NCBI GenBank assembly: GCA_021513715.1
Contig: CP084167.1
Span: 2,560,001-2,624,000, forward strand
From: Candidatus Heimdallarchaeum endolithica
Lineage (GTDB): Archaea; Asgardarchaeota; Heimdallarchaeia; Heimdallarchaeales; Heimdallarchaeaceae
Length of the DNA stretch: 64,000 nucleotides
Reading direction: 5' to 3'
Shown here: positions 15,718 through 37,889 of the stretch, piece by piece
Layout: the number at the start of each line of letters is the position of its first letter
Position numbering within the stretch: the first letter of the stretch is position 1
Made by a program: the position numbers and the translations under genes
Notes under the pieces: generated by a model
Seen by the model: only the letters and a program-made list of their open reading frames with translations
Databases searched by the model: none
What the model was told of the DNA's origin: nothing

Positions 15718-17364
15718 ATGAAAAATAGTCTTGTTAAGGAAACGTTTGTTATACGAATGATAACAATGAATAACCTAAGCTTAAATAGTAGTTATAAACA
15801 GAAAAACAGTAGTTTTCTAGATGTTTTTTTAATAGGTTTTTCAATATTATGTTTATCTCTCTATATCTTTTTCTTCAATAAAATGATTTTAATTTTTGAA
15901 GAATTTGCTGTTATTTTTAATATATTGTTCATTTTTTCGATTTTTCTCCTATGGTCGTTGACTTCTAGTTTATTTTATTTTTTAAATAAAACAGAACAAG
16001 AGTTTAAAATTTTTTTTTCTACTCTCTCCTTGCTTATTGTAATGGCTATATTATCTACTTACTTAATTTCAATAATGGAAAGGATTTTTATTCTTATTAC
16101 AAGCTTAAAAAAAGAATTAATGATTATTATTTATACTTCTTATATTGTTCCTGTAATAGAGGAAATTTCTAAAATTTTTCCTATTTTAATTCTTTTCAGA
16201 CATTATATCCGTTATAGGTATGAAGGAAAATTAAAAACATACCGTTTAATTGTTTCTTACAGACAATTTGTGTTCTATTCAGTTCTTTTTGGCTCATGTT
16301 TTGGGTTTTTTGAGCACTTTTTCTTATTTTCCTCACTTTTTGATTTTGAGAATATTGGTAATATTGTTTTCCTTCGTATTTTTTATCCTCTTCATCCTGT
16401 AACTTCTGGTTTGTTAGCGATTGGTGTTGGATATTTTTTATTTGTTGATTCAAATATTAAAAAAATGAAAACTTGGTTAGCAACCCTTCTACCTATTTTA
16501 TTGTCTCTAGTTTTTCATATTTTTTGGAATTACAACTCTTATTTTAATTTGCTTACTCTCTTGCAGTATATAGGTTGGGCAGCTACTGGATTGTATTTTG
16601 TTATCTGCGTTTTTTTAATTAAAAGGCCAAATATATGCACTGACTGTGGAATACAGCATCCAAAAGGGTCTTGCAAGAAAGATTCAGCTCTTAATATCTC
16701 TCTTAAAAAATTTATTAAGAAAGATTTAGTTGTTGAAAGTGATTATATCGTTAAAGAAGAATATATTGTCTGCCCTCTTTGTGGAGTTCAAGCTTTTGAT
16801 GGTGAAATTTGTTATGCTTGTAACAGTTGGGCAAAATTTCAATGTTCTAACTGTAATCAAGTTGTACCTCCTTTTGCGAGAACATGCTGGTCATGTGGAG
16901 CATCATTACCGACACTACAAGATAAAATCAGATCTACATTTCCCTCGTCTTATATGACCTTCTCTGTTGCAGTAACTCGAATTGTTTCATCTACAGTCTT
17001 GATTAGTTTGATTGTTGGGTTGCTTAATTTAAAAAATAAATTAAGTTATTTAGGTTTTACAATTTTACTCCTTTCGATTTTGATAGCTTTATCTACCTCT
17101 CTAATTTGGTATGGAATGAATAGTAAGAGAATAGATTCAATAATTGTGTCAATTGTGGTGACTTCATCTGTCTTCTTCACTATATTATCTATGAATTTAC
17201 TTCTGATTCTTTTGAGTATAGTTCAATTGTTTATTATACACAACCTTGTCTTCGGTTTATTTGGTTTAATAATTTCTTCCATTGTTATTTATGGAATATA
17301 TAAATATCTTAGAGCGACTTTTAGAGGTGACAGTTTAATTGTAGGGGGTGAAGTTCTTGGATGA
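15718..17364 (+). CDS. PrsW-family intramembrane glutamic protease fused to zinc-ribbon repeats and extra TM helices
   Basis: PVIEEISK, FGFFEH, PLHPVTSG, FHIFWN (all four PrsW motifs); Cys pairs CTDC, CPLC, CYAC, CSNC, CWSC. Start could be 15757 or 15766. Confidence 0.8.
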   Translation: MKNSLVKETFVIRMITMNNLSLNSSYKQKNSSFLDVFLIGFSILCLSLYIFFFNKMILIFEEFAVIFNILFIFSIFLLWSLTSSLFYFLNKTEQEFKIFFSTLSLLIVMAILSTYLISIMERIFILITSLKKELMIIIYTSYIVPVIEEISKIFPILILFRHYIRYRYEGKLKTYRLIVSYRQFVFYSVLFGSCFGFFEHFFLFSSLFDFENIGNIVFLRIFYPLHPVTSGLLAIGVGYFLFVDSNIKKMKTWLATLLPILLSLVFHIFWNYNSYFNLLTLLQYIGWAATGLYFVICVFLIKRPNICTDCGIQHPKGSCKKDSALNISLKKFIKKDLVVESDYIVKEEYIVCPLCGVQAFDGEICYACNSWAKFQCSNCNQVVPPFARTCWSCGASLPTLQDKIRSTFPSSYMTFSVAVTRIVSSTVLISLIVGLLNLKNKLSYLGFTILLLSILIALSTSLIWYGMNSKRIDSIIVSIVVTSSVFFTILSMNLLLILLSIVQLFIIHNLVFGLFGLIISSIVIYGIYKYLRATFRGDSLIVGGEVLG

Positions 17365-18541
17365 AGAAAGGAAATACAAAGAGCGACAACTAAAGTTAGA
17401 CGCAAAGAAACACTTTTTAGAGCAATCTAAATTTACTGCAGCAGAGCTACAAGCAAGAGGATATCAGCTCTCACCAATTCTGTTTGAAGATTCAAGGAGT
17501 AGAAGAGTGTTTGATGAAGGAAGGGTTGAAAAATTCTCTTTTATTGAAAAAACAAAAAAACTACTATTGACCTTGTTTGGATTTATTGTCAATCTTATTT
17601 GGTTAGTCATTGATTATAATAATGTGAACAGCGAAAAATATTTCCTTCATAACAAAAATAGAAGTAAAAGAGAATATTATTCTGAACTAATATTACATAT
17701 TTCAACATTTTATTCAATAACGCTTATTGTTCTTGTTCTTATTAATTATTTCATTTTAGAATCAGCTGTTGTCTCTTCTCTTTATGATATTCGTTCATTA
17801 GTTTGGTATCCTGATAGGGCTTTAAGTTTAAGTTACATTTATGTTTTTTCAGCTAAAACGCCTTTTGATATAATTACAAATACTATTCTAACTGTTTTAA
17901 TTCCTTTTTTTGTTGCTGGTATTGCTGCAGGAATAGCGTGGAAAGATGATGCAAAAGATGTTGTTGGACCATCTTCGTTTCTATCGTTTTTACTATTTTT
18001 AGCTTTCTTCTTTAATGAAATCTTCATCACATCATCCTTTAAAATTAGTGATATTCTTGCAGGTTGGTTTTTGTCATTATTATATGAATCTATGATGCTT
18101 ATAGTGCTGTTTCAAGCACTTATACTTAGTTTACTCGGTGGTGCGTTAGGTGTTATGCTAGGTATTTCTTTTTCAAACATTGCTTCACAAAAAAATGATG
18201 AGCACTCTTTTTTCTCTCCTTCTATTCTTCCTGTAATACCTATTACTGTCAAAACTTTGTTTGATATGGTAGATGTTTCTTCACTCACCACTTCTTCATT
18301 TAATCCTAGGATAATGTTAGTTTACTTAAATAGAACTATAGAGTTAAATTCAAAAAGAATAAAAGTAGAGCATTGCCCCTATTTTGTTGAAGGACGTTGC
18401 GCATATTTAGGGTATAAAACAACAGCAACAAAAAAACAAATTTGCACAACAGAATCATACAATTCATGTAGGGTTCTTGCATTTATTTTACAGAGTAAAC
18501 TATTAATTAAAGAAATAAAAGAGGAAGAAAAAAATGGTTAA
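17348..18541 (+). CDS. Multi-pass membrane protein with C-terminal Cys cluster
   Basis: About 5 hydrophobic segments; CPYF....CAYLG...IC......C tail; overlaps both neighbours. Confidence 0.7.
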   Translation: MKFLDEERKYKERQLKLDAKKHFLEQSKFTAAELQARGYQLSPILFEDSRSRRVFDEGRVEKFSFIEKTKKLLLTLFGFIVNLIWLVIDYNNVNSEKYFLHNKNRSKREYYSELILHISTFYSITLIVLVLINYFILESAVVSSLYDIRSLVWYPDRALSLSYIYVFSAKTPFDIITNTILTVLIPFFVAGIAAGIAWKDDAKDVVGPSSFLSFLLFLAFFFNEIFITSSFKISDILAGWFLSLLYESMMLIVLFQALILSLLGGALGVMLGISFSNIASQKNDEHSFFSPSILPVIPITVKTLFDMVDVSSLTTSSFNPRIMLVYLNRTIELNSKRIKVEHCPYFVEGRCAYLGYKTTATKKQICTTESYNSCRVLAFILQSKLLIKEIKEEEKNG

Positions 18542-19295
18542 TATTAAAAATTACATGAATCTAAAAGGGTTTGTTATTTTACTAGCAGTTATCTTGTTTA
18601 TTCTGCTAAATAGTACTCAAGAATCATATATCCCTCTTGATCAAATTGATTATACAACTTTAGAAACTATTCAAACAGGTTCAGAAACCAGTTGGACTTC
18701 CTCTCTTCCTGTTTCTACAACTACAACAACATTTCCTGAAATTACTGGTTCTATCCCTCAACCTTCTTCTTCTCCTTCTAGTTTCTCTCCTGCAACATTA
18801 ATTGCTATTGTAACTAGCATTTTTTTCATAGGTGTTATTGTTTTATTAATTATGAAACGAAAAAATTTTGTTACCTATGGTTCTTTTACTAGACCAAAAA
18901 GGGAACATATGAAAACTATAACTGAAAAAAGAGAAATTTTCAGAACTCAGATTGTTACACTTAAAGATATCTTGTTAGAATACCTTGATGATAAGAAATA
19001 TACAGAGGGGGTAATTTATGGTTTCCTCACCCTTGATAAAAATATGAAAAAATTATTAGGTCTAAAAAGAAAGCGCTCTTTAACTCCTAAGGAGTTTGCT
19101 GAATCCTTGGAACTTCCTGAAATCATTCAAAATTTAAAAAATATTGTTAATTTATTTTATAGAGCGAGATATAAACTTGAAAAGTTAAAAAAGGATGATC
19201 TGTTGGATTTTATTAATAACTTGGATATAATAAAAGAAAAAAGTAAAACTGCTAAAAAAATTGAAATTCGCCAAGTAATTGTTAAGGAGGAATGA
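18534..19295 (+). CDS. Membrane-anchored DUF4129-domain protein with short Ser/Thr/Pro-rich ectodomain
   Basis: N-terminal hydrophobic segment, S/T/P-rich stretch, TM followed by KRK, then LTPKEFA...LFYRARY (DUF4129 T-x-x-E...ARY signature). Confidence 0.72.
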   Translation: MVNIKNYMNLKGFVILLAVILFILLNSTQESYIPLDQIDYTTLETIQTGSETSWTSSLPVSTTTTTFPEITGSIPQPSSSPSSFSPATLIAIVTSIFFIGVIVLLIMKRKNFVTYGSFTRPKREHMKTITEKREIFRTQIVTLKDILLEYLDDKKYTEGVIYGFLTLDKNMKKLLGLKRKRSLTPKEFAESLELPEIIQNLKNIVNLFYRARYKLEKLKKDDLLDFINNLDIIKEKSKTAKKIEIRQVIVKEE

Positions 19296-19299
19296 TTAA

Positions 19300-20598
19300 A
19301 TGGAAAAAACTAATCTTTTTAGTATTCGTTATGAAGCAATTTTTAAAACAGTTATACAAACGTTAATTTTGTTCTTAATCTTGTTTTTTCCTTTTGTATT
19401 TAACTTTGTTACTACATCTCCTCCCTATACTATAAATAACTATGGTCCTGGTGGTTATTCTATTTTTAGAGAAAAACTAGTAGAAGAGGACTTTAATGTT
19501 TCCCGTATCTTGATAAGCACAGAAAATCTGTTAGATCTTCCTAAATCGTCAATTTTAATAATTGCTGGAGGAACAAAGTCTTATAGAAATATCGAGATCC
19601 AAAGAATTACCGCCTTTTTATATCGTGGAGGAACAGTCTTTTTGCTTATTGACTCTATTACTTCACAAAACTTAGCACTCAAACTGAATATTAGTTCTTC
19701 AATGAGTAATATCATGGAAACAGTTAATTATTACAAGAGCCCAGAAATTGTCTTGACAGAAGCTCCATTTAAGGAAGTTCTCAAATATTCTCCGATCGAT
19801 AAGTTAGCTTTTCTTCAACCTAAAGTTGTTTATGGTTCTACAAACACTTACCTTAAAATAAAAACAAATAATACAGCTTTTCTTGATTCAAATTTTGATA
19901 AAAAATGGTCTATGTATAAAGAGGATTTAAGAGAATACACTATAGCTAGGGTTGAAGGTCGAGGGTCAGGGGTTTTAATAGTTGTTGGTTCTCCAAGTTT
20001 CTTGACAAATGACTTATATGTTGCTGGTTTTGCTAATATTAATACTACAATTTATCTCTTAAAACTCTATTCTAGTTACTTGTTTGGTGAAGGAGCGAGA
20101 TATGTTTACTTTGATGAAAGTCATAAACGTTGGTCAATTTGGTCTAGAGATGGTCTAATTAACCAAACTTACGGGACTATTACTCTTCTTACACAATCTG
20201 AAGCTTTTATTCTTATGATTATTCTCTTGATTATAGGACTTTACTATATATTACCTAATATTCGCAAATTTAAAAGAAAATCGAAAAAAGGCTATAAAGA
20301 CTTCCTAAAAAAGCATATCTATAGCAAAGAAAGAGAACTTTATGATACTTTGGGACAAGCAGTAAAACCAACTGAAGAAGAAAAAATATTAACTTCTTTA
20401 TATTTTCAATATGAAAACTTTCCAAATAGAGTGTACAACATCTATTTGCAAAGAAAGTTGAATAATGTCAGTGAAAAGAACTTTACTGACGAAGAAAAAA
20501 CATTGTTTAATGAAATTATAAAAAGAAAAATTGATTTCAAAGTATTTATTTATTTGTTTAATAAATTAGAAGAAATCCAAAAGAGGAATTTAGTATGA
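19300..20598 (+). CDS. DUF4350-domain membrane protein (module A)
   Basis: YTINNYGPGGYS, FL.RGGTVFL, GSGVLIVVGSPSFLTN, VYFDESH, flanked by TM segments. Confidence 0.75.
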   Translation: MEKTNLFSIRYEAIFKTVIQTLILFLILFFPFVFNFVTTSPPYTINNYGPGGYSIFREKLVEEDFNVSRILISTENLLDLPKSSILIIAGGTKSYRNIEIQRITAFLYRGGTVFLLIDSITSQNLALKLNISSSMSNIMETVNYYKSPEIVLTEAPFKEVLKYSPIDKLAFLQPKVVYGSTNTYLKIKTNNTAFLDSNFDKKWSMYKEDLREYTIARVEGRGSGVLIVVGSPSFLTNDLYVAGFANINTTIYLLKLYSSYLFGEGARYVYFDESHKRWSIWSRDGLINQTYGTITLLTQSEAFILMIILLIIGLYYILPNIRKFKRKSKKGYKDFLKKHIYSKERELYDTLGQAVKPTEEEKILTSLYFQYENFPNRVYNIYLQRKLNNVSEKNFTDEEKTLFNEIIKRKIDFKVFIYLFNKLEEIQKRNLV

Positions 20599-21536
20599 AT
20601 GTAGAAGAAACAAAAGAAATTTTCCAAAAAGTCTTGGAACAGATGAAAAAAAGAATTGTTGGGAACGATAAAGTGATAGAATTAATTTTTGCAACAATGT
20701 TAGCAGATGGGCATGTGCTTTTGGAAGGAGTACCAGGTATCGCTAAGACATTAATGGCATCCACTTTAGCAGAAATACTTGATCTAAATTTTAAACGGAT
20801 TCAATTCACTCCTGATTTACTTCCAGCTGATATTACTGGAGGAAATATTTACAACAGAAAAACAAATGAGTTTGATTTTGTTAAAGGGCCTGTTTTCACT
20901 AATATCCTTTTAGCTGATGAAATAAATAGGAGTCCTCCTAAGACTCAATCTGCTCTTCTAGAGGCCATGCAAGAACATCAGGTGTCTAGTGGAACTAAAA
21001 CATATGACTTACCAGACCCATTTTTTGTTATTGCAACTCAAAATCCAATAGAAAGTACGGGAGTTTATCCTCTTCCTGAAGCGCAAATTGATAGATTTTT
21101 AGTAAAAATTTTAGTTAAACCTCCAAACGTGACTGGAGAAGTTGAAATGTTGAAAATGAAAAAAGAAAAAATGTTTGCTGATGTTGATATGGTTATAAGG
21201 AAAGAAACAATTTTGACTATGAAAAAAGAAATTGAGACAAATGTTAAGATTTCTGATCAAGTGTTGGAATATATCGCTAAGCTTGTAACAGCAACAAGAG
21301 AAATCCCCTCTTTATCACTAGGTGCAAGTCCCCGCGGTTCTATTGCTTTATTGACACTCAGTCGGTCTATTGCTGCAATAAATGGACGAGATTATGTGGA
21401 GCCTGATGATATTAAATCTATCTTCCATGCTGTGATTAATCATCGTTTAATATTATCACCTGAAGCAGAAATTGAACAAATAAGAGTGGAAGAAATAATT
21501 AAGAATCTCCTTTCTGAAGTTGAAGTAGTTATATAA
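20595..21536 (+). CDS. moxR: MoxR-family AAA+ ATPase (module A)
   Basis: GHVLLEGVPGIAKT, RIQFTPDLLPAD, LADEINRSPPKTQSALLEAMQE, ATQNPIE, YPLPEAQIDRF, GASPR. Confidence 0.96.
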   Translation: MNVEETKEIFQKVLEQMKKRIVGNDKVIELIFATMLADGHVLLEGVPGIAKTLMASTLAEILDLNFKRIQFTPDLLPADITGGNIYNRKTNEFDFVKGPVFTNILLADEINRSPPKTQSALLEAMQEHQVSSGTKTYDLPDPFFVIATQNPIESTGVYPLPEAQIDRFLVKILVKPPNVTGEVEMLKMKKEKMFADVDMVIRKETILTMKKEIETNVKISDQVLEYIAKLVTATREIPSLSLGASPRGSIALLTLSRSIAAINGRDYVEPDDIKSIFHAVINHRLILSPEAEIEQIRVEEIIKNLLSEVEVVI

Positions 21537-21555
21537 TTCAAACAGTGGTGAAAAC

Positions 21556-22935
21556 TTGTCTCTAGAAACAAGAACGGAATTAACTAGATCAGGACGATTT
21601 CTCATACTTGTAGGCTCTATTATGCTTGTTTTAGGAATTGCTATCGAAAATTATTTGTTTATTATTCCTGGATTGTTTCTTCTATTGGTTATTACTTCAA
21701 TTCTTGTTAATTTCTTCCTTTTTCAAAGTTTTCCTGAAGCTTCTATACTCGTTTCAAAAGATCATGTTCGAAGTAGGGGATTGGTTGCTGTAGTAGGTAG
21801 TATTCAAAATAAAAACAAAAAAAAGTTAACTTGTCGTATAACTTTAAACTACTCTTATCACTTTCTCATGGTTGAAAAGCCTGAATCTTATCTTATTCAA
21901 GTTGAACCAAATTCTGAAACTAAGCTAGATTGGTATTTACTAGCTGTTAGAAGAGGTAATGGGATTATTGGACCAATTTCAATTTCTTTTGGATTCTTTC
22001 AACAATTATTTATTAATCAAGTAATCTATTCAGAAAAAATACAAATAAAAATACTTCCTCAAAGACCAAAAGTTCAAATTCCATGGAAAACAAAAAAGGA
22101 TCTCTTGATGCAACTAGTAAACCAATTTGCTCAAAGAGTAAAAGGTCAAGGAACAGAATTTTTCGCTTTAAGAGATTATTTACCTGGAGATGAGATGAAG
22201 CACATAGATTGGAGAGCTACAGCTAGACACGATAAGCTTATAACAAGAGAATTTGAAGACGAGAAACAACTTCACTTTCTCATTTTTCTTGATCTAGGCA
22301 GTACCATGTTTGGACCAAAGTTTGACTATGCCTTATCAAGCGTCGTTTCTCTTTGTAGTTTAATAAAAGGAACTAATCATGATCTGACTGTGGTAGCTTA
22401 CTCGCATGTGGTAGAAAAATTTATTGTACCTCAAATTGGAATCCATGAACTTAAACTCATGCTTAATTTATATGATTTAGACGCCACAGGCGTTCAAAGT
22501 GATTTTGTAGAAGCTGCAAAATTTGCAAGAACACAAAATTTTCATCATAGTATTGCTATTATCTTTTCAGATTTAGATGGCGACATTAATCAAAAACTTC
22601 GTGGGCTAGATATTCTTAAGTTAATGGGATCTAAGATAATATTTGTTAATTTTTCTACACCAAATTTTAATATCCTTGCTTCAAAGGAATGGTTAATTGA
22701 AAAATCTCCCACCATATCTTATTCTACTATTCTGGATAAAGTCTTTTCAAGTTTAACAATGGATGAATATAAAATTAGAGAATTAAAAGTAAGAAGAATA
22801 TTAAATGCTTTTGATGGAGATTTTGTTTCAATATATGGTTATGATGACGATGTTGTTTTAGCACTTTATCGTTTAATGAAAAAATATAATCCAAAGCGAA
22901 AATTAGATGTTTTTTATAACAGAGGGGAAACTTAA
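21556..22935 (+). CDS. DUF58 / vWA-domain protein with N-terminal TMs (module A)
   Basis: GTEFFALRDYLPGDEMKHIDWRATAR...LITREFE; the MIDAS position reads DLGST; IIFSDL. Confidence 0.9.
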   Translation: MSLETRTELTRSGRFLILVGSIMLVLGIAIENYLFIIPGLFLLLVITSILVNFFLFQSFPEASILVSKDHVRSRGLVAVVGSIQNKNKKKLTCRITLNYSYHFLMVEKPESYLIQVEPNSETKLDWYLLAVRRGNGIIGPISISFGFFQQLFINQVIYSEKIQIKILPQRPKVQIPWKTKKDLLMQLVNQFAQRVKGQGTEFFALRDYLPGDEMKHIDWRATARHDKLITREFEDEKQLHFLIFLDLGSTMFGPKFDYALSSVVSLCSLIKGTNHDLTVVAYSHVVEKFIVPQIGIHELKLMLNLYDLDATGVQSDFVEAAKFARTQNFHHSIAIIFSDLDGDINQKLRGLDILKLMGSKIIFVNFSTPNFNILASKEWLIEKSPTISYSTILDKVFSSLTMDEYKIRELKVRRILNAFDGDFVSIYGYDDDVVLALYRLMKKYNPKRKLDVFYNRGET

Positions 22936-23702
22936 TGGTAAGAATACGTGATGCAGATTTTAACGCAAATTGGAATTTGGAATTAAAAAAAACAAGAGGT
23001 TTTCAAATTATACAAATTCTTCATCTTTTGTTTGGCTTTATAGCTTTGTTACTTGTCCTTATTCAATCTATTTTGAGTGAAAATGTTATTATCTTTACAG
23101 TTTGGTTGTCATTTGCAATAATACTCCTGTTAATTGATATTTCTCACGGGAGTAATATTAAGATTCAAGATGAAATGACTTTTTTTGGTTTAGTGCTTTT
23201 GGGAACACTATTTTCTATGTATTTTGCAAATATAGAGTCAATGTTTTTTATTGATAACCTTAACCAGTTAAATATAATATCATATCAGATTATGGTTGGA
23301 GTATCTATCTCTCTGCGTCTCTTCCTTGCTATATACTTTGAATCCTTATATTCTAAAGAGTTTAAGGTTTTACATCCAAAAACTATCTATTCTTCTGAAC
23401 AATTGGAGATGTATAAAAGTAATTTGCTAAAAACCAATTTCTCAGTAAAGCAAGTTAGACAGCTAGATCTTAAAGAGCAATTTTACTATCTTGTATCTAA
23501 AATATTTGTTCCAATAATCATTATTGGGTTTTTTGTACTGTTATCTTATGCTTATGCTTATTTTATTTACTTGCTTTTGCCCAATGACGTGCTTAAAGAA
23601 TTTATAGTTAAGCCTGCTTTTATTGTTTTTTCATTATTGTTCAGTTTTATATTGGTAAGAGTAGCTAATTCTTTACCAGAGCTTATCAAAAAAAGTTCGT
23701 GA
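22935..23702 (+). CDS. Multi-pass membrane protein (module A terminal gene)
   Basis: About 6 hydrophobic segments; TAATG stop/start overlap with the DUF58 gene. Confidence 0.7.
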   Translation: MVRIRDADFNANWNLELKKTRGFQIIQILHLLFGFIALLLVLIQSILSENVIIFTVWLSFAIILLLIDISHGSNIKIQDEMTFFGLVLLGTLFSMYFANIESMFFIDNLNQLNIISYQIMVGVSISLRLFLAIYFESLYSKEFKVLHPKTIYSSEQLEMYKSNLLKTNFSVKQVRQLDLKEQFYYLVSKIFVPIIIIGFFVLLSYAYAYFIYLLLPNDVLKEFIVKPAFIVFSLLFSFILVRVANSLPELIKKSS

Positions 23703-23789
23703 GAAAGATATAGACTTAAAATATTTATTAAATTTAAATAAACCCTTTTTGCAACAAATTTTACTGGCTATAAAAAGTAAAAGAGTGTT

Positions 23790-31492: not shown

Positions 31493-31502
31493 GGTGAATA
31501 AA

Positions 31503-32015
31503 ATGTTTGGATGGGCAAAAAAGAGAAAAAGGTTAAAAAAATTAGATCAACTGTTTAATTCTGCTATGGCCGATGTAAGAATATTTGAGCAAAGGCAAGA
31601 CTATCGCGGAGCAGTAATTGCTTCATTTGGGGGGCTTACGAGTATTGCTGAGAACTTAATCAATCTTACAAGAGCTCCACATCAGACAGGTAGAGAATTT
31701 GGCATGCAAGTTGCAGAACAAGCAAATATCTCTACTGAAGTCATGGACGAATTTCTTACATCTTTTGAAATAGCTCGATATACTGAAAGAGAAATAGGTT
31801 ATGATGATTATCAAGAGGCTGTACAACGATTGGATGTTTGTTTTAGAGGTATACGAGAACAAGGTATTCAAGAAATAACTGAAGAAACATCTTCAAAGAA
31901 AGAAAAGAAACAGAAAATAAAAACAGCTAAAAAAGAAACAGCTAAAAAGGAAATAGCTAAAGTAAAAGCTAGTAAGCAATTAAAAACTAGAAAACAGTTG
32001 AAAACTAGAAGATAG
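31503..32015 (+). CDS. Soluble DUF4129-domain protein with Lys-rich repetitive tail
   Basis: YRGAVIASF...QTGREFG...FEIARYT. The track start GTG 31494 lies within the GGTGA SD, so ATG 31503 is preferred. Confidence 0.72.
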   Translation: MFGWAKKRKRLKKLDQLFNSAMADVRIFEQRQDYRGAVIASFGGLTSIAENLINLTRAPHQTGREFGMQVAEQANISTEVMDEFLTSFEIARYTEREIGYDDYQEAVQRLDVCFRGIREQGIQEITEETSSKKEKKQKIKTAKKETAKKEIAKVKASKQLKTRKQLKTRR

Positions 32016-32066
32016 TGGATTTTGGTAAATAAAGAAATAGAATAATCAAAAAATGGTGTGTAATGT

Positions 32067-33851
32067 ATGTCCGAGGAAGAAAATCAAGAAATAGTGGACA
32101 AGTATGAGAAAGAACTTGCAAAGCAAGAAGATGAATCAGCAAAAAAACAAAAGGTTAAGAAAGTAAAAACCAAAAAACAGAGTAAAAAACCAAAGAAAAA
32201 ATTTAAGCTTCAAAAAGTAAAATTTACGAAATATTCTTTGGCTATGACTTTGTTGTTTCTCATAGTTATAATTCCACTATTTATTGGTTTGGTTGGCTTG
32301 GGTGGAAAAAGTGTGAAATTTTCCATCTATAACACTGGATGGGATGGTCTTTCCACTGTGTATAATACATTACAAGCTGAAAATAAATATGAGATATCAA
32401 ATGGAATGTCAAGTTTGACAATCTTGAACAGATTAAATAGTAGTGGTGTTCTTGTAATTATTGGTCCAACAACAAGTTATAATTTCGCAGAAACTATTAG
32501 TCTTGTAACCTTTTTGGTTAGAGGAGGAAGTTTGATAGTTGCAGATGATTTTGGTTCAGGAAATAAGATATTTGAACCTTTTTGGAATGTTATTGAAACA
32601 TATGACTCACTTGTTTCTTTGGGACTTGTTCCTTCCTTAACAGACATATTTTTTGGAAATCAAAGTTCTCCTTCAAATGTTACATCAGTTGAAGATTTAG
32701 CTGGTGCAGCAATATTCGAGATGCTGGCTGGGATGTTAAAAGCAATAGGCTTTAACCAAACAGTATTAATGGACGCTGGAAGTAATTATGGGGGTGTAAG
32801 TTCTCAACCATTGTTAAAAGATACAAACCCTGATAATCCTTTGACAGCTGGAATCACAAAAGGTGTTCAGATGGAATTTGGTACGGTATTAAGCGTTAAA
32901 ATAAACAACTCTCGTTATAATCCTTCTACAAGACAGTATGAGTGGTATACAGATTGGGTTCCTTTGCAGCCTTTGTCTATAAATATTACGATTGAAGGTG
33001 GCGAATATGGCAATATGGAACCAATATTTATAGAAGATGTAATGTTGCCATTTCTCTCGTTTTTCACTACTACAACATCTTGGATGGAATCAAATTTTAG
33101 AGAAGCTTTAACTGGTGATGCGATACCAGATGAGGGTGAGTGGGGAAACACTGCTTTTGCGCCTATATTGTCAATACCTATAGGTAGAGGAAAAATAGTA
33201 ATGATTGGAGATCCTGACATTTTCATAAATAAATGGATAGAAGATACAGAACATAATGATAATCTTATATTTTGTCAGAATTTGTTTGATTATGTTACTG
33301 AAAATATTGTTGCAAATACAACAAGTGGAAAAATACCTATAATATTTGATGAAGGACATACACAATATAAATTTTATAGTCCAGCTCTGGTATCGACTAT
33401 TTTAATGAGGTTGATTACAGAGATGTCTATGTATCCACTTTATTCACCTTTTGTTCCTATTATGTTTGCAGTTATGGCATATCCCCTAATACCAAAAACT
33501 AGACGATTGACTCCTGTATTGTGGACACGATACAGAGGAGAAAGAGGAAGATCACGTTTTGAGCGTGAAATAAAAAGAATATTAGAAACTGGAAGCTACA
33601 GTGAAGCAGTAGGTTTGCTTTATAGGTCCATGTTAAGGGGAGTAAGAAAAGTTGATACTTCTGCCGCAAGTTCTCCTAGAGCTTTGGCAGAGTTCTTTAT
33701 TTCAAGGGGATTCCCCTTGAAAAAGGGAGCTTTGGTAAGCGAATTTGAGCGAATTGATCGCTATCTACAAAGACCAAAGTTGCTCCCACAATCAGAATTT
33801 GAAAAAATGTTGCAGTTTATCAAAAATCTAATTGATACTCTGCCTAAATAA
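32067..33851 (+). CDS. DUF4350-domain membrane protein (module B)
   Basis: FSIYNTGWDGLS, RGGSLIVADDFG, GRGKIVMIGDPDIFIN, IIFDEGH; paralogous motifs to 19300-20598. Confidence 0.8.
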   Translation: MSEEENQEIVDKYEKELAKQEDESAKKQKVKKVKTKKQSKKPKKKFKLQKVKFTKYSLAMTLLFLIVIIPLFIGLVGLGGKSVKFSIYNTGWDGLSTVYNTLQAENKYEISNGMSSLTILNRLNSSGVLVIIGPTTSYNFAETISLVTFLVRGGSLIVADDFGSGNKIFEPFWNVIETYDSLVSLGLVPSLTDIFFGNQSSPSNVTSVEDLAGAAIFEMLAGMLKAIGFNQTVLMDAGSNYGGVSSQPLLKDTNPDNPLTAGITKGVQMEFGTVLSVKINNSRYNPSTRQYEWYTDWVPLQPLSINITIEGGEYGNMEPIFIEDVMLPFLSFFTTTTSWMESNFREALTGDAIPDEGEWGNTAFAPILSIPIGRGKIVMIGDPDIFINKWIEDTEHNDNLIFCQNLFDYVTENIVANTTSGKIPIIFDEGHTQYKFYSPALVSTILMRLITEMSMYPLYSPFVPIMFAVMAYPLIPKTRRLTPVLWTRYRGERGRSRFEREIKRILETGSYSEAVGLLYRSMLRGVRKVDTSAASSPRALAEFFISRGFPLKKGALVSEFERIDRYLQRPKLLPQSEFEKMLQFIKNLIDTLPK

Positions 33852-33907
33852 AATAATGTTTCAAAGAAATAAAAAAATCAAAAAAAAGAAAAGGAAAGTG
33901 AAAAAAA

Positions 33908-34912
33908 ATGAGTGAAGAAGAAAAACCGGCTAAAAAACCGGCTAAAGGAAAAGCACAAACTGAAGCAGTGGTTACACCAAAAGATATCAAAAGAGTGTGG
34001 TCAGAGATCTATGCTGAATTAAAACGTGTAATTATTGGTAAATTAGATGTACTAGAAGATCTCTTTATTGCTCTTCTTGCAAGAGGGCATGTGTTGCTTG
34101 AAGGTGTACCTGGTGTTGCAAAAACTGTGATGGCTAAAAATTTTGCTGCTACACTTGGGGCTGAATTCAAAAGAGGACAATTTACTCCTGACTTACTCCC
34201 AAGCGATGTAGTAGGTACTACTATATATGATCCTAAAGCAGGAACATTTAAGATGAGAAAAGGCCCCATATTTACAAACATCTTCTTGGCTGACGAAATT
34301 AATCGAAGTCCTCCAAAAACCCAAGCTGCTTTGCTTGAAGCTATGGCTGAGAAACAAGTCACAGTAGAAGGAACCACATTTAAACTTGAGCCACCTTTTC
34401 TGGTAATTGCAACTCAGAACCCTGTAGAACAAGAAGGAACATACCCATTACCGGAAGCACAAGTAGATCGTTTTATGTTTAAATTGATTGTTGACCTACC
34501 TTCTCCAGAGGAAGAAATAGAAATAATTGATCTTTCACATAAACATGCTTTTCGTACAGTTCGCAGAATAACCACTCCTATGACTATCATTAGAATGATA
34601 GAAACTGTGGAAAAGAGAATCTATGTACATGAAGACATTATGTCCTACATCAGAGATATTACTGTAGCAACTCGTACTGATCCACGATTATTACTTGGTG
34701 GTTCTCCAAGATGTAGTATTGCGCTGTTAAATGCTTCAAAAGCTGTGGCAGCAATGAATGGCAGAGACTACGTTATTCCTGATGATGTTAAACGTGTCGC
34801 CAAGATAGGTGCAGCTCATCGTTTACAAATGAAACCTGAAGCGGAGTTGGAAGGTACCACTGGAAATATGGTTATGGATGATATCTTACGCAATTTACCT
34901 GTACCCGTATAA
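33908..34912 (+). CDS. moxR: MoxR-family AAA+ ATPase (module B)
   Basis: GHVLLEGVPGVAKT, QFTPDLLPSD, LADEINRSPPKTQAALLEAM, ATQNPVEQEGTYPLPEAQVDRF. Confidence 0.96.
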   Translation: MSEEEKPAKKPAKGKAQTEAVVTPKDIKRVWSEIYAELKRVIIGKLDVLEDLFIALLARGHVLLEGVPGVAKTVMAKNFAATLGAEFKRGQFTPDLLPSDVVGTTIYDPKAGTFKMRKGPIFTNIFLADEINRSPPKTQAALLEAMAEKQVTVEGTTFKLEPPFLVIATQNPVEQEGTYPLPEAQVDRFMFKLIVDLPSPEEEIEIIDLSHKHAFRTVRRITTPMTIIRMIETVEKRIYVHEDIMSYIRDITVATRTDPRLLLGGSPRCSIALLNASKAVAAMNGRDYVIPDDVKRVAKIGAAHRLQMKPEAELEGTTGNMVMDDILRNLPVPV

Positions 34913-34922
34913 ACTTAATTAG

Positions 34923-36371
34923 GTGATTACAATCTTTACACGAAGAGGAGGATACCTGATATTCTTTGGTATTGTAATGATTAGCATAGGCTTTGCACTT
35001 GCAGGTTTCCTAGCTCTAAATAACATTCTTGAATCATTTGGAGCACATCCAGTGCCTGAGACATCAACAGAACCCCCCCAAGGAACAGGATTAATGGACC
35101 TTTTCCATTTCTACCTTTTAGATTCGACTCTAATATGGTATTTCATCATCCTAGGAGTTATGCTTATTTTCTCCGTTATGCTTGGCTTACCATTCTATAG
35201 ACTTGGTGCAAATCCTGAATCTATTGAAATAAAAAGAAAAGTAGCTAAAGCAAAAGCTTTTGCTGGGGATTATGTGTATATAGAAGTGACAGTAAGAAAC
35301 AAATCAGTAAATCAGCTTCCCCATGTAGAAATTTATGATGCTATTCCAGAAGTTTTTGACTTGGTGTTAGGAGAAAATTTCATCATTACACAACTGAACC
35401 CAAAAGAAATAGTAACTTTTGGATATGTAGTAAGGATTCCAATAAGAGGGTTGTTTAACATTGGACCAACTAAAATAATAATTAAAGACCGAATGGGTTT
35501 TTATGCTACAGAAGGTGAAATTAAAACAAAAACAGAGATATTAGTTTATCCAAGCTATGAGGATATTAGAAAAATGGAAATGATTGGTAAAAAACGCCGA
35601 TTAGGAGTTATTTTTGGAATGCATCGAACTAAAGTTAAAGGAATGGGTGATGACTTCGCAGGAATCAGACAATATCAAACAGGAGATCCATTCAAGTTTA
35701 TTGATTGGAAAAGCGTTGCACGTTCAGGCAAAATGATGGTTCGTGAATTTGAAGCTGAACAAAATATTAGAGTCATTATCATGATTGATGCTTCTGCAAG
35801 TATGGGTGCTGGACTTCCTAGAAATACGAAACTAGAATATGCTATCCGAAGTGCAGTGTTATTAATGCATCTGGCTTTTGAAAAGCATGATATGGTTGGT
35901 TTGTGTGTATATGATGATGAAGTGAGGACTTGGATTGATCTAACTAGCTCTAGAAGCAGACTATTTGCATTTTTAGAAGCATTGGCCTTAGTGAAACCTA
36001 GGGGCGAATCAGATTTAGAGAAAGCTATGGATTATGCAATAAAAAGAACAAGAAGAGCATCGTATATTGTTGTTTTGTCTGATTTAGAGTCTCATCCTCA
36101 AAAAATAGTTTCTGCAATAAGACAGGCACGAGGACGAAAACATCAGGTCACTGTGATAAGTCCATTTGGTCCATGGTTTGAGATTGTATCACAGCAATTA
36201 AGCCCTATAGAACAATTGATAGGTTATGCAATGGTTGAAAAGCAGATGGGTGAAAGATATAGAATGTTTAAAGCTATAAGAAAATTCGATGCTACAACTG
36301 TTAATGTAGGTCCAGATGACTTCTTGCCTACTATAATGGCTCAATTTAGAAGAATGCAAAGGAGAGGATAA
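34923..36371 (+). CDS. DUF58 / vWA-domain protein with N-terminal TMs (module B)
   Basis: GDDFAGIRQYQTGDPFKFIDWKSVAR...VREFEAE; intact MIDAS DASAS; VLSDL. Confidence 0.92.
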   Translation: MITIFTRRGGYLIFFGIVMISIGFALAGFLALNNILESFGAHPVPETSTEPPQGTGLMDLFHFYLLDSTLIWYFIILGVMLIFSVMLGLPFYRLGANPESIEIKRKVAKAKAFAGDYVYIEVTVRNKSVNQLPHVEIYDAIPEVFDLVLGENFIITQLNPKEIVTFGYVVRIPIRGLFNIGPTKIIIKDRMGFYATEGEIKTKTEILVYPSYEDIRKMEMIGKKRRLGVIFGMHRTKVKGMGDDFAGIRQYQTGDPFKFIDWKSVARSGKMMVREFEAEQNIRVIIMIDASASMGAGLPRNTKLEYAIRSAVLLMHLAFEKHDMVGLCVYDDEVRTWIDLTSSRSRLFAFLEALALVKPRGESDLEKAMDYAIKRTRRASYIVVLSDLESHPQKIVSAIRQARGRKHQVTVISPFGPWFEIVSQQLSPIEQLIGYAMVEKQMGERYRMFKAIRKFDATTVNVGPDDFLPTIMAQFRRMQRRG

Positions 36372-36374
36372 AGA

Positions 36375-37889
36375 ATGGAATCGTTATCAGAAACAAGAAT
36401 GATTGATCTAGGAATTAGAGGTGTAGAACGAAGGCTCAAGGGCGCAAGAACGCAGACAATTATTACTAATGTAATCTCTAGAGTAATAGCAATAGGCGTG
36501 ATTTTGTGGCTGTTTCTTCAATTATGGACTAATATTGACAAAACAAAATTACCTCCAGGTCATTTGGTTGATTCTCTTACCATCGCCTTTCTTTATTTTG
36601 AGAGTGTTGCAGTTTTATTCTTCCTTATACCCATATTCTTAACCTCTCTGATTTTTGGGGCAATGGGCGGCAGTTCTGATGGAAGTGCTATATTACTTAC
36701 TGCTAGGGCATTCTTTACAGTAGACATTTTTAACAATGTATCTCCCCCTGAACCGTTGTCTTCATCTGATCTCTATGGGAGCGATAGCACAAACCTGCTT
36801 TCTGTTTTTACTAGCTCCTTTGGTTATCTGTGGAAAAACCGTGTCTTCTTTAAAGAAACTAACAGAGCAACAATTCTTATTTTAGCAGTTGTTATCTTCT
36901 GGTTAGGTGTAACTGCCTTCTTAATGAGGTCAGATATGCGAACGGCTGCGACTGTTTTTGCTTCTTCTCAATTTATTGTTCTATATGCTCAAACTCAATT
37001 ATTATTCAAAGATCAGTTGTCTTATTCTCCAACAGAAAAAATATTTGAGCTTTTTTCCTATGATGCAGTAATTACAGCTTTAGCCTCATATTTGTTCCTT
37101 GAAATAGCATTGCAAACTTCTTATATTTCAAAGATACTCAACCCAACACAAGACAGGCAAAAGAGGGTCTTACAAGCTCTTGATAGACTAAAGGAATTTA
37201 GACTGGGAGTAACTCCTGTAACAACTGAAATAAGTAAACCAGAGGAAGAGGAAACTAAAAAAGAAGCTTCAAAAACGATTTCTGGAGCAGGTAGCAGTTT
37301 AGTTAAAAAATATGGTGCTACAGCTGTTGCATTTTTAGCAGAAAAAACTAAAGACTCATTATTTGCTAAACCTGGGGGAAGACAAGCTAAATTAACTGGA
37401 AGGTTGCAACGATATCATGATAGTTTAGTGCATAGTGATACAGAAGTAGATCAAAAACTAGTGGGTGCGTCAGTTGCTGTTTCACCAATGATGACTATTG
37501 TATATATTACAATATCAATCATCTTTAGACTAGTAATTATGATGTTAGGATTATTCTTAGTCTTGAACCCTGATATTCTGTTGTTTATTCTTCGTTATCC
37601 TCCTTCAATTTATTATAGCTTAGAACTGTTAGAACCTGAAGGAGTGGTTTTGCTATTAATTCCTATTATAGTGATGATTTTATTGCTTACAGAATTAATA
37701 GGTTATATACAAAAAAGATTGGCTGCAAGAATAAGTCAAGAAAAAACAGAAGAAGAACTAATGGAAGAAATACAGTATGAAGAAGAAGAGGGGACAGGAA
37801 TAGTAACTGAAGGGCCGATAAGCGGAATATCAGAGGAAGAATTATTCTATAAACAATTAGAAGAAGAATTCTCTGATGAAGAAGAATAA
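36375..37889 (+). CDS. Multi-pass membrane protein with acidic C-terminal tail (module B terminal gene)
   Basis: About 7 hydrophobic segments, a large central soluble loop and a Glu-rich tail. Confidence 0.75.
   Translation: MESLSETRMIDLGIRGVERRLKGARTQTIITNVISRVIAIGVILWLFLQLWTNIDKTKLPPGHLVDSLTIAFLYFESVAVLFFLIPIFLTSLIFGAMGGSSDGSAILLTARAFFTVDIFNNVSPPEPLSSSDLYGSDSTNLLSVFTSSFGYLWKNRVFFKETNRATILILAVVIFWLGVTAFLMRSDMRTAATVFASSQFIVLYAQTQLLFKDQLSYSPTEKIFELFSYDAVITALASYLFLEIALQTSYISKILNPTQDRQKRVLQALDRLKEFRLGVTPVTTEISKPEEEETKKEASKTISGAGSSLVKKYGATAVAFLAEKTKDSLFAKPGGRQAKLTGRLQRYHDSLVHSDTEVDQKLVGASVAVSPMMTIVYITISIIFRLVIMMLGLFLVLNPDILLFILRYPPSIYYSLELLEPEGVVLLLIPIIVMILLLTELIGYIQKRLAARISQEKTEEELMEEIQYEEEEGTGIVTEGPISGISEEELFYKQLEEEFSDEEE

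Follow-up and report, generated by a model that had tools for sequence, protein, structure and literature searches.

Organization of the locus

The window is a 64,000-nucleotide stretch of Candidatus Heimdallarchaeum endolithica DNA (contig CP084167.1, positions 2,560,001 to 2,624,000), and a check of its open reading frames (ORFs) placed 14 of them on the + strand in two blocks of genes, A1 to A7 and B1 to B7. Junctions are tight, as neighbouring genes either overlap by 1 to 17 nt or are spaced 1 to 56 nt apart, and the ORF coordinates bear out an initial sequence-only reading of 14 co-directional, mostly overlapping or abutting genes in two blocks. Four of the seven families (DUF4129, DUF4350, MoxR, which matches AAA_3, and DUF58) are common to both blocks, and each block also has a polytopic protein at its end, A7 in block A and B7 in block B. 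The Pfam check upheld the domain names proposed earlier (DUF4129, DUF4350, AAA_3, DUF58 and Transglut_core), and the two differing front ends of the blocks are real.

The blocks are separated by thyX (23790..24500, - strand; ThyX PF02511, 218 bits), an antisense spacer that is a member of neither module and is found with unchanged position and orientation at 17 related loci. The earlier reading had thyX alone splitting the blocks, which is correct as to its position but overlooked its orientation. Since thyX lies on the minus strand, blocks A and B cannot share one transcript and constitute separate transcription units.

Components of block A

Block A is headed by A1 (15718..17364, + strand), a PrsW-like polytopic intramembrane protease of about 10 transmembrane (TM) segments, with a predicted cytoplasmic multi-zinc-ribbon insert and predicted C-terminal TM helices. 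A1 itself gave only a weak zinc-ribbon (DZR) match in Pfam. Its orthologue in genome G036 (L010) matches PrsW (PF13367) at 54.6 bits, above the Pfam threshold, the PrsW motifs EExxK, FxxxE, PLH and HxxWN are intact in 6 of 7 A1 orthologues, and five CxxC pairs are invariant across these orthologues, all of which sustains the proposed PrsW/zinc-ribbon protease at the head of the block. The family is rare, with 28 representative clusters matched among 1.84 billion proteins. A2 (17348..18541, +) is a polytopic membrane protein by TM prediction, with a four-Cys C-terminal tail and no significant family match in Pfam or NCBIfam; its Cys cluster is kept in family orthologues and in G036, confirming the Cys-tail membrane protein that had been described. 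A3 (18534..19295, +) is a bitopic protein with two TM segments and an outer loop that is short and rich in Ser/Thr/Pro. Its DUF4129 domain, on the cytoplasmic side, scored 23.4 bits against PF13559, marginally below the 24.8-bit cut-off, and 75 bits against a purpose-built DUF4129 profile.

A4 (19300..20598, +) is a DUF4350 protein of the arCOG01314 type (PF14258, 37.7 bits), composed of an N-terminal TM segment, a GldG-like ectodomain, a C-terminal TM segment and a cytoplasmic tail. A5 (20595..21536, +) is a MoxR AAA+ ATPase (AAA_3, 217.7 bits, plus AAA_lid_2) that belongs to an A-type clade supported in the MoxR tree by an SH-aLRT value of 99. Both Walker A and Walker B are intact in A5 and in its counterpart B5. 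A6 (21556..22935, +; PF01882, 58 bits) is the DUF58 protein of the block. It has a TM hairpin at its N-terminus and, in the cytoplasm, a vWA-like domain, the MIDAS of which is degenerate (DLGST), with loss of the metal-binding motif; this degeneracy was found in 10 of 10 A-type DUF58 orthologues. The last gene, A7 (22935..23702, +), encodes a 7-TM protein for which no family was found in Pfam, NCBIfam or Atlas. Its profile retrieved 22 matches, each at the end of a block A.

Components of block B

B1 (24693..27800, +) is a membrane-anchored pseudo-transglutaminase, with four N-terminal TM segments followed by a dead transglutaminase core (Transglut_core PF01841, 33.7 bits) and beta-sandwich domains. 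The transglutaminase fold that had been called here stands, but the protein is dead as an enzyme: the AF2 model has Foldseek matches to factor XIII/TG2 and macroglobulin domains, while the catalytic Cys, His and Asp positions are substituted in the window protein and in its orthologues alike. B2 (27797..31492, +) is a giant single-pass surface protein with a signal peptide, an ectodomain of about 1050 aa made of a beta-sandwich array, a TM segment and a cytoplasmic C-terminal DUF4129 domain (PF13559, 26.1 bits at residues 1160-1210). Its ectodomain is modelled as all-beta, with Ig/macroglobulin-like sandwiches (AF2 mean pLDDT 71.6) and Foldseek matches to complement/alpha-2-macroglobulin and Ig-FN3 arrays, in agreement with the Ig-like single-pass protein first proposed. 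B3 (31494..32015, +; PF13559, 28.1 bits) is a soluble cytoplasmic DUF4129 protein with a Lys-rich tail, in which TM prediction found no TM segment.

B4 (32067..33851, +) is the DUF4350 protein of the block (PF14258, 46.2 bits) and runs from a Lys-rich cytoplasmic N-terminus through a TM segment, an ectodomain and a second TM segment to a DUF4129-like cytoplasmic tail. B5 (33908..34912, +; AAA_3, 215.2 bits) is a MoxR AAA+ ATPase of the B-type clade, and B6 (34923..36371, +) is a DUF58/vWA adaptor (PF01882, 124.6 bits; VWA_2, 55.3 bits) with an N-in TM hairpin and a cytoplasmic part composed of a beta-sandwich and a vWA domain with intact MIDAS (DASAS). Among 79 DUF58 sequences of the B-type and other non-A-type groups, about 73 have an intact DxSxS motif. 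B7 (36375..37889, +), a polytopic membrane protein whose cytoplasmic regions are charged and whose tail is acidic, represents an Asgard-specific family. No Pfam, NCBIfam or Atlas family was found for it, and all 66 matches of its profile lie downstream of a B-type DUF58 gene.

Relatedness of the two blocks

Identity between paralogues is 48% for A5/B5, 21% for A6/B6 and 31% over 100 aa for A4/B4. The A-type and B-type MoxRs form separate clades in the tree, each spanning several families or phyla, which supports the old divergence of the blocks suggested earlier. The shared tail order claimed for the blocks is retained for DUF4129, DUF4350, MoxR and DUF58 but does not extend to the final polytopic proteins, which are unrelated; a blank BLAST comparison of A7 with B7 and an hhalign probability of 10% ruled them out as homologues. 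The cytoplasmic tails of the DUF4350 proteins are homologous (hhalign 95.7%), and the B4 tail is a remote profile match to DUF4129 (hhalign 87%, E 4e-6), a link that is absent when the A4 tail is compared directly with DUF4129 by hhalign. The 3.3-Mb genome has three Pfam matches to DUF4129, and all of them fall in this locus.

Topology and rates of change

Topologies were derived from hydropathy and charge only. The N-terminus and the segment after the hairpin of DUF58 are K/R-rich and the hairpin loop is uncharged, a pattern that places the vWA domain in the cytoplasm, on the same side as MoxR. The DUF4129 domains follow the last TM segment and K/R-rich stretches. These predicted topologies fit the general picture, already drawn in the earlier reading, of cytoplasmic MoxR and DUF58 coupled to membrane-spanning surface proteins. 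For B1, the four N-terminal helices and K/R-rich N-terminus point to a large domain that lies inside, and the N/S/T-rich composition and the analogy to TgpA point to one that lies outside. Sequon density in B2 is 2.7 per 100 aa; observed/expected sequon ratios gave no distinction between inside and outside.

Within the family, median identity was 81%, 74% and 70% in the cytoplasmic parts B5, B6 and B3, 52% and 51% in the membrane-spanning parts B4 and B7, and 39% and 35% in the surface parts B2 and B1. B3 is conserved as strongly as the motor proteins.

Conservation and distribution

The twin arrangement with thyX recurs in about 17 species-level Heimdallarchaeaceae genomes and is kept in all of the approximately 17 Heimdallarchaeaceae-type loci with enough flank, from several genera, a recurrence that argues against chance. 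However, thyX and an EF-2 paralogue, which are unrelated neighbours, are conserved as well as the blocks in Heimdallarchaeaceae, and the adjacency consequently appears to be a gene order passed down by inheritance. Elsewhere in the order and class the blocks reside on different contigs or loci. It is well supported that block adjacency in Heimdallarchaeaceae represents inherited gene order of two transcription units.

Block B was present with no A1 found in family f6 (A1 in 0 of 5) and in genome G055, and in G036 block A lies next to a block B that is reduced. Across the order and class, about 4-5 kb separate A1 from an A-type MoxR, and the block A gene set, including the PrsW-like protease, survives rearrangement in genome G037; among the genomes searched, the link between this protease and block A occurs only in Heimdallarchaeia. 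The block B core spans Asgard lineages, together with a fast-evolving and variable giant surface protein. In these lineages DUF4350-MoxR-DUF58-B7 stays constant while the large DUF4129-bearing protein varies (about 820, 1200, 1700 or 2060-2270 aa). The block B DUF4350 profile also retrieved simple-type loci in Thermococcus, Methanoregula and Aenigmatarchaeota.

Proposed mechanism and alternative explanations

The evidence gives good support to the view that the locus holds two independent, anciently diverged variants of a widespread arCOG01314-type MoxR-DUF58-DUF4350-DUF4129 membrane module. The explanation we prefer as a whole, to which we grant about an even chance of being correct, adds that in each variant a MoxR/DUF58 motor acts on DUF4129 tails. 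A cytoplasmic MoxR hexamer would pair with a DUF58 adaptor tethered by its TM hairpin to the inner face of the membrane, and the pair would dock on DUF4129-type helical domains, the putative cytoplasmic tails of bitopic surface proteins. This contact between MoxR/DUF58 and DUF4129 is one that we purely infer. ATP hydrolysis would then cause a surface complex of ectodomains to be assembled, held or remodelled, with MoxR/DUF58 behaving as an inside-out chaperone and not as a pore.

The surface side of block B would be large and fast-evolving, made up of B2 with its beta-sandwich array, B1 as an inactive transglutaminase-like scaffold and the ectodomain of the DUF4350 protein. By analogy to Rea1 and CbbO, the MIDAS of its adaptor would grip an acidic residue of the client, a candidate being the Glu conserved in the 'FExARY' motif of DUF4129. 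In block A nearly all components are membrane-embedded and the adaptor has lost its MIDAS. The constant presence of a PrsW-like protease whose motifs are intact points to a role in proteolytic processing or quality control; PrsW would act on the DUF4129 and DUF4350 proteins, both bitopic, in coupling with remodelling by MoxR.

A secretion system (Makarova et al. 2015), in which large co-encoded surface proteins would be exported through a conduit of A2/A7 and B7 with energy from MoxR, seems unlikely. In its favor, DUF4350 is similar to GldG, a component of the gliding/T9SS-linked ABC system, and the components are mostly membrane or surface proteins (PMC5898192); moreover, a giant surface protein is encoded beside the block B core in every case. 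Yet B2 itself carries a signal-type hydrophobic segment at the N-terminus and a stop-transfer TM segment, as a Sec substrate would, no component resembled a known channel or secretin in Pfam, NCBIfam or Atlas, and block A is devoid of any large exported protein. MoxR ATPases such as RavA, CbbQ and NorQ, furthermore, are known as remodellers and chaperones and not as translocases. The polytopic A2, A7 and B7 may nevertheless have a role in translocation.

Signalling by regulated proteolysis, mainly in block A, is a rather improbable alternative, according to which PrsW would carry out site-1 cleavage of A3 and MoxR/DUF58 would free a DUF4129 fragment as the signal. The strict linkage of a PrsW gene with intact motifs to the cassette in Heimdallarchaeia is in its favor, A3 is built like a PrsW substrate, with a cytoplasmic domain, a single TM segment and little more than a short stretch outside, and the zinc ribbons of A1 and the Cys cluster of A2 could be sensing or binding modules. 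Against this, Pfam and NCBIfam revealed no DNA-binding or other output domain in the locus, a second copy of the block A cassette in G036 has lost the PrsW motifs and retained the gene set, and DUF4129 has no known signalling role.

The sequence-only reading had also entertained one hetero-complex, in which the blocks cooperate physically, the PrsW of block A for example processing or regulating surface assembly by block B. Retention of the twin in every Heimdallarchaeaceae-type locus with enough flank is what speaks for it. We consider it very unlikely, given the antisense thyX, the equal conservation of unrelated neighbours and the complete set of motor, adaptor, DUF4350 and DUF4129 in each block. 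The location of the blocks at separate loci elsewhere in the order and class, the occurrence of block B where no A1 was found and of block A beside a reduced block B, and the different old MoxR clades likewise leave the hetero-complex unsupported. Finally, metal-cofactor insertion or chelatase-like maturation of an envelope enzyme is hardly credible: the block B MoxR and its vWA partner with intact MIDAS form the pairing of NorQ/NorD, CoxD/CoxE and BchI/BchD, but neither block contains or adjoins a candidate metalloenzyme, B1, the sole enzyme-like client, is without a catalytic triad, and the block A vWA lacks MIDAS.

Comparison with known systems

CbbQ-CbbO, NorQ-NorD, RavA-ViaA and Rea1/Midasin are MoxR/vWA remodellers of solved mechanism, in which an AAA+ ring works with a MIDAS adaptor that grips an acidic residue of the client. 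Block B retains all of their sequence requirements, whereas the block A adaptor is without MIDAS; in both blocks the adaptor is membrane-tethered and the presumed clients are cytoplasmic tails of surface proteins. PrsW of Bacillus subtilis is a site-1 protease that cleaves the anti-sigma factor RsiW. A1 and its orthologues retain the four PrsW family motifs but add five CxxC pairs and extra C-terminal TM helices, and A1 is embedded in a MoxR cassette. Archaea are not known to have a sigma/anti-sigma system.

In gene content the blocks compare with three systems, those of arCOG01314, PFNA and TgpA, none of which has a known mechanism. The PFNA operon of bifidobacteria (pkb2-fn3-MoxR-duf58-tgm; PMC8430577, PMC6803598, PMC12067865) resembles block B in its clustering of a large FN3/Ig-like surface protein, MoxR, DUF58 and a transglutaminase-like protein. 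No gene for a Ser/Thr kinase, a PFNA feature, lies in or adjoining the blocks of the window, the transglutaminase-like B1 is catalytically dead, DUF4350, DUF4129 and B7 are extra, and the host-cytokine-binding role proposed for FN3 is inapplicable to a sediment archaeon. TgpA-type proteins carry a C-terminal DUF4129 in Pfam architectures, a domain that here sits on separate proteins (B2 and B3). In Pseudomonas aeruginosa, PA2875-PA2874-PA2873 (tgpA) are co-transcribed and encode MoxR, DUF58 and TgpA (Milani et al. 2012, PMC3507681). The likeness lies in a MoxR-type ATPase, DUF58 and a polytopic protein that bears a large domain of the transglutaminase-core type. However, TgpA is an active, essential transglutaminase while B1 is without the Cys, His and Asp, and the Pseudomonas operon as described has neither a DUF4350 gene nor a giant Ig-like protein.

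The nearest description is that of arCOG01314 (DUF4350), a 'putative novel secretion or membrane-remodelling system' of archaea (Makarova, Galperin, Koonin 2015; PMC5898192, section 3.2, Table 2). One predicted operon encodes a membrane-anchored DUF4350 protein with a GldG-like ectodomain, a COG0714 MoxR, an Ig-plus-vWA (DUF58) protein, Ig-like surface proteins and small membrane proteins (PMC5898192). Both blocks fit this description. DUF4129, the constant partner here, is missing from it, and the PF07760/arCOG02884 S-layer-like proteins that it includes were not detected. The vWA protein was read as secreted by Makarova et al., whereas hydropathy and charge place it in the cytoplasm. Block A adds the PrsW-like protease, the Cys-tail protein and the MIDAS-less adaptor, and block B the giant beta-sandwich protein, the pseudo-transglutaminase and the Asgard-specific B7. 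The arrangement at the locus matches one already described (PMC5898192), although that system was predicted and not experimentally characterised. Blocks A and B are variants of the module predicted in 2015 and not a new machine.

Organization of the locus

The open reading frame listing and Pfam scans revealed 14 plus-strand genes with tight junctions, and the two co-directional blocks described in the sequence-only reading were thereby borne out. Block A (15718-23702, +) encodes, in order, a polytopic protein with zinc ribbons (A1), a polytopic protein with a Cys tail (A2), a DUF4129 protein (A3), a DUF4350 protein (A4), a MoxR ATPase (A5; AAA_3, about 218 bits), a DUF58 protein (A6) and a protein with 7 TM segments (A7). 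Block B (24693-37889, +) encodes a 1035-aa protein with a transglutaminase core (B1), a 1231-aa protein with a C-terminal DUF4129 (B2), a soluble DUF4129 protein (B3), a DUF4350 protein (B4), a MoxR ATPase (B5; AAA_3, about 215 bits), a DUF58 protein with a VWA_2 match (B6) and a polytopic protein (B7). The two blocks were also said to end in the same order, which holds for DUF4129, DUF4350, MoxR and DUF58 and fails for the terminal polytopic proteins, since A7 and B7 are mutually unrelated in hhalign comparisons. Only four of the seven families are therefore shared between blocks.

The thyX gene (23790-24500, -; 218 bits) is separated from A7 by 87 nt and from B1 by 192 nt. Because it occupies the minus strand between them, the blocks constitute two transcription units. 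The flanks are unrelated to the blocks: the upstream genes encode a CoA-disulfide-reductase-like and a CBS protein, and the downstream gene encodes an EF-2 paralogue. This stand-alone paralogue (38020-40251, -) is convergent and directly 3' of block B in nearly all Heimdallarchaeaceae-type loci (L026-L043), a constancy of position indicating that the whole neighbourhood is syntenic. B4 is 93% identical to its DUF4350 counterpart in Candidatus Heimdallarchaeum aukensis PM71 (CP084166).

Conservation and age of the two blocks

A search of 60 relatives with A5 as query found A-type and B-type MoxR sequences (those grouping with block A and block B, respectively) on the same strand and separated by about 13 kb in at least 13 Heimdallarchaeaceae genomes, and full gene-by-gene synteny of the twin was seen in G012 and G002. 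A wider survey of GTDB species representatives returned 79 named loci, which were annotated with iterated profiles of the 14 block proteins; it was seeded with an alignment of B-type DUF4350 only and is consequently biased towards block B. Metagenome-assembled genomes carry their deposited taxonomic labels here, some of which are probably erroneous. All of the roughly 17 Heimdallarchaeaceae-type loci with enough flanking sequence exhibited the order DUF58, A7, antisense thyX, B1 through B7 and then the EF-2 paralogue, with thyX identities of 58-89%. B1 is the first gene of the operon to which B5 and B6 belong, and this order recurs in 17-19 related loci. Since the unrelated neighbours are equally conserved, the adjacency of the blocks reads as inherited gene order. 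Some survey labels seem inconsistent with their loci, among them a Heimdallarchaeaceae-type twin labelled 'Thorarchaeota' (L037; B4 identity 53%) and a Heimdall-type block B labelled 'Bathyarchaeia' (L057). L073 carries three extra genes between DUF4350 and MoxR.

Outside the family, the seven genes of block A form a cassette of their own in G036 (two copies), G031, G059, G047 and G225. In G037 (L108:9054-17304, G037:C388) its order is permuted to PrsW, MoxR, DUF58, two membrane proteins, DUF4129 and DUF4350, and the survival of the set through such a reshuffling speaks for its genes being functionally linked. The second G036 cassette (L011:6465-14485, G036:C2) encodes a PrsW-like protein that lacks EExxK and HxxWN and a DUF58 protein whose MIDAS position reads QGGAS; this copy may be degenerating or have been repurposed.

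The core of block B consists of DUF4350, MoxR, DUF58 and B7, preceded by a large DUF4129-bearing protein, a small DUF4129 protein or both, and is present in genomes labelled Heimdall, Hod, Thor and Hermod. Its front end varies: only Heimdallarchaeaceae-type loci have the pseudo-transglutaminase together with a roughly 1200-aa protein, and the protein at the front measures about 1700 aa in loci of the Hod type, about 820 aa in a second Heimdall lineage and 2060-2270 aa in Thor. Loci with the 1700-aa front end (L049-L080, Hod- and Heimdall-labelled) also encode, 3' of block B, two proteins that the window lacks: a conserved soluble one of 177 aa and one of about 425 aa with 13-17 predicted hydrophobic segments.

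In the tree of MoxR sequences, A-type sequences formed one clade (SH-aLRT 99), B-type sequences grouped with other Asgard B-type sequences and with arCOG01314-type sequences of Thermococcus, Aenigmatarchaeota and Methanoregula, and the third MoxR of the genome was separate. Together with the separate occurrence of the blocks outside the family, this topology indicates that the split is old and that the twin is not a local duplication. The old divergence of the paralogues proposed earlier is thus upheld. A local tandem duplication is rejected on the sharing of only four families, the unrelatedness of A7 and B7 and the placement of the MoxRs in different old clades. A joint complex of A and B, raised in the sequence-only reading as a single hetero-complex, is judged unlikely, given that the blocks occupy separate loci outside the family and that block B is present where A1 was not found (family f6 and genome G055).

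The third MoxR operon (G000:C1:1617766-1625979; L021:11680-19979) has different partners. It encodes MoxR and proteins of 724 aa (5 TM), 226 aa and 532 aa (10 TM), followed by a soluble 313-aa DUF58/VWA_2 protein without a TM anchor and a 623-aa CARDB/IgGFc-binding-like protein. The operon of G036 (L012), compared at its start, begins likewise with MoxR and proteins of about 710, 245 and 530 aa.

Motor, adaptor and DUF4129 proteins

A5 and B5 matched AAA_3 (PF07726; 217.7 and 215.2 bits) and AAA_lid_2 (76.8 and 77.1 bits), with Walker A (GxxGxxKT) and Walker B (hhhhDE) intact in both. The adaptors differ at the MIDAS. In B6 it is intact (DASAS, matching DxSxS), as it is in about 73 of 79 B-type and other non-A-type DUF58 sequences. 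In A6 the position reads DLGST and does not conform to DxSxS; all ten A-type DUF58 orthologues are degenerate here, each differing from the others. A6 is a DUF58 member (58 bits) and, judged by its motif, not a canonical MIDAS vWA protein. B6 also has a weak DUF11 beta-sandwich match N-terminal to its vWA domain. Hydropathy and charge suggest an N-in TM hairpin in DUF58, an arrangement that would place the beta-sandwich and vWA domains in the cytoplasm, on the same side as MoxR.

By the same measures, the DUF4129 of A3 and B2 is predicted to follow the last TM segment on the cytoplasmic side. The DUF4350 proteins (PF14258; A4 37.7 bits, B4 46.2 bits) have a TM segment at both ends, and the distribution of hydrophobic and charged residues is consistent with an N-terminus in the cytoplasm, an ectodomain between the two TM segments and a C-terminal tail of about 115 aa that is again cytoplasmic. 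The tail of the B4 type matched a DUF4129 profile (hhalign 87%, E 4e-6, 98 columns) and the tail of A4 matched that of B4 (95.7%), the A4 tail giving no direct match to DUF4129 in hhalign profile comparison. The whole genome, a single contig of 3.33 Mb, has three Pfam DUF4129 matches, all within the twin locus. Elsewhere, a DUF4350-like stretch (G000:C1:1422299-1422856; 29.5 bits) lies inside a 1034-aa open frame with no MoxR match there.

Long Lys-rich, low-complexity extensions, predicted to be cytoplasmic, occur at the N-termini of B1 (24693-24830) and B4 (32067-32230) and at the C-terminus of B3 (31880-32015), and B1 orthologues retain 13-22 K/R in the N-terminal segment. The C-terminus of B7 (37780-37889) is a strongly acidic, Glu-rich tail. 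Electrostatic docking is a possibility.

The PrsW-like protein and the Cys-tail protein of block A

A1 is a putative protease, its motifs assigning it to a PrsW-like family. It gave no match to the PF13367 model at E <= 0.01; its G036 orthologue scored 54.6 bits against a cut-off of 23.5 bits. The PrsW motifs EExxK, FxxxE, PLH and HxxWN are present in A1 and in six of seven aligned orthologues, and five CxxC pairs are invariant in the alignment. The four-Cys tail of A2 is kept in Heimdallarchaeaceae orthologues and in G036. The A1 family is rare: a search of 1.84 billion proteins gave 28 representative clusters at E <= 1e-3. A search of 250 genomes of the phylum found it in 24 of 25 genomes of family f1, 1/1 of f2, 10/10 of f3, 3/3 of f4, 8 of 17 of f5 and none of the five of f6; beyond these, weak matches appeared in two families only, none adjoining MoxR or DUF58. 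Remote PrsW-zinc-ribbon homologues were seen in two genomes of f19, a family of the same phylum outside the class of the window (G097 and G112; L105:14369-15130 and L106:4799-5683). There a soluble DUF4350-like protein (250-290 aa) is encoded about 3-5 kb away, with no MoxR or DUF58 nearby.

Surface and terminal membrane proteins

The transglutaminase core of B1 was recognized by PF01841 (33.7 bits). Its AF2 model, of moderate quality (pLDDT 56), gave Foldseek matches to factor XIII/TG2 and to macroglobulin-type beta-sandwiches, and a sequence search against the PDB gave no match. The catalytic Cys, His and Asp positions are all replaced, also in the G012 and G002 orthologues, and from these residues B1 is read as a pseudo-enzyme and not an enzyme of the TgpA type. 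The ectodomain of B2 was modelled (AF2, pLDDT 71.6) as almost all beta-strand and matched arrays of Ig, FN3 and macroglobulin domains in Foldseek; B2-type proteins are candidate major surface components. Block A encodes no Ig-like or S-layer-like surface protein. The possibility that B1 and B2 represent a split form of the 1700-2270-aa Hod and Thor proteins was discarded, the B1 profile not matching them. The observed/expected ratio of sequons did not discriminate between inside and outside domains.

A7 and B7 belong to no known family in Pfam or NCBIfam and matched only unnamed clusters in the ESM Atlas; NCBIfam provided no names for 10 proteins. A SpoIIM-like identity for A7, by analogy with the SpoIIM-like proteins of bacterial MoxR modules, found no support, with no PF01944 match genome-wide and no Pfam match in A7 or its orthologues.

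Within-family median identities in block B revealed a conserved cytoplasmic set (B5 81%, B6 74%, B3 70%) and a fast-evolving surface set (B2 39%, and the putatively surface B1 35%), with the membrane-spanning B4 (52%) and B7 (51%) between them. Such rates are consistent with a machine in the service of a variable surface protein.

Proposed mechanism and significance

The best supported picture, which we infer from the combined evidence, combines a MoxR ring in the cytoplasm, a DUF58 adaptor tethered to the membrane and the DUF4129 tails of surface proteins. MoxR and DUF58 would act on these tails, and a surface complex would be assembled or remodelled as a result. DUF4129 is the sole cytoplasmic element common to all membrane-spanning partners. 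In block B, gripping would be MIDAS-dependent and the surface load large and variable. Block A would operate with no MIDAS, mostly embedded in the membrane and with a PrsW-type protease added, features that point to processing or turnover. Among the rivals, a secretion system is the function already suggested for a related archaeal gene set, discussed below. A signalling cascade through regulated proteolysis would draw on the putative protease, which is present in one block only. Cofactor insertion is a further rival to action on DUF4129 tails.

A bolder extension of the DUF4129-tail picture, which we regard as rather unlikely, is that DUF4129 serves as a general cytoplasmic 'handle' by which MoxR and DUF58 pull single-pass surface proteins. 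If so, the DUF4350 tail and the C-terminus of TgpA would be further handles, and the module would be a prokaryotic inside-out transducer of force or conformation, functionally comparable to integrin-type MIDAS signalling. The Asgard module would then control a giant, rapidly diversifying surface adhesin, and the MIDAS-less copy of Heimdallarchaeia would be linked to a PrsW protease and so serve regulated turnover.

Few unexplained ATPase modules of bacteria and archaea are as common as MoxR-DUF58 clusters, and to our knowledge none of these has an established mechanism; our literature search found none. The twin is a real, conserved operon pair and a variant of a known, mechanistically unsolved kind of system. 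It reveals no new system and instead sharpens the question through its internal contrasts, for one genome sets a MIDAS against none, a PrsW-like protease in one block, and a large surface load (block B) against almost none (block A). Asgard surface proteins and protrusions are in addition of interest for ideas on the origin of eukaryotes.

Comparison with known systems

A defence system was rejected, with no PADLOC match for 10 proteins. Ternary systems of MoxR, vWA and beta-propeller proteins differ from the twin locus, which has no propeller or effector gene; A5 scored 47 bits with the bpMoxR model versus 218 bits with AAA_3. The bifidobacterial PFNA operon brings MoxR and DUF58 together with a kinase, an FN3 protein and a transglutaminase (PMC12067865), but no kinase domain corresponding to its core Ser/Thr kinase Pkb2 was found in the 14 genes or in those directly next to them. 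In Pseudomonas aeruginosa, PA2875, PA2874 and tgpA are co-transcribed and tgpA is essential (PMC3507681). Block B shares with this type the transglutaminase core fold and the MoxR/DUF58 operon, whereas the Cys-His-Asp triad is absent from B1.

Makarova, Galperin and Koonin proposed, without experiments, a 'putative novel secretion system' of archaea that comprises DUF4350, MoxR, Ig-vWA, Ig-like surface and small membrane proteins (PMC5898192, section 3.2, Table 2). The Ig-like or S-layer-like surface proteins of this arCOG01314 system are of the arCOG02884/PF07760 type; B2 is modelled as a beta-sandwich array, but PF07760 matched neither it nor any other block A or B protein. The DUF4350 protein of the system, with an N-terminal signal or TM segment, a large ectodomain and a C-terminal TM segment, has its counterparts in A4 and B4, and the adjoining COG0714 MoxR and vWA proteins correspond to A5/A6 and B5/B6.
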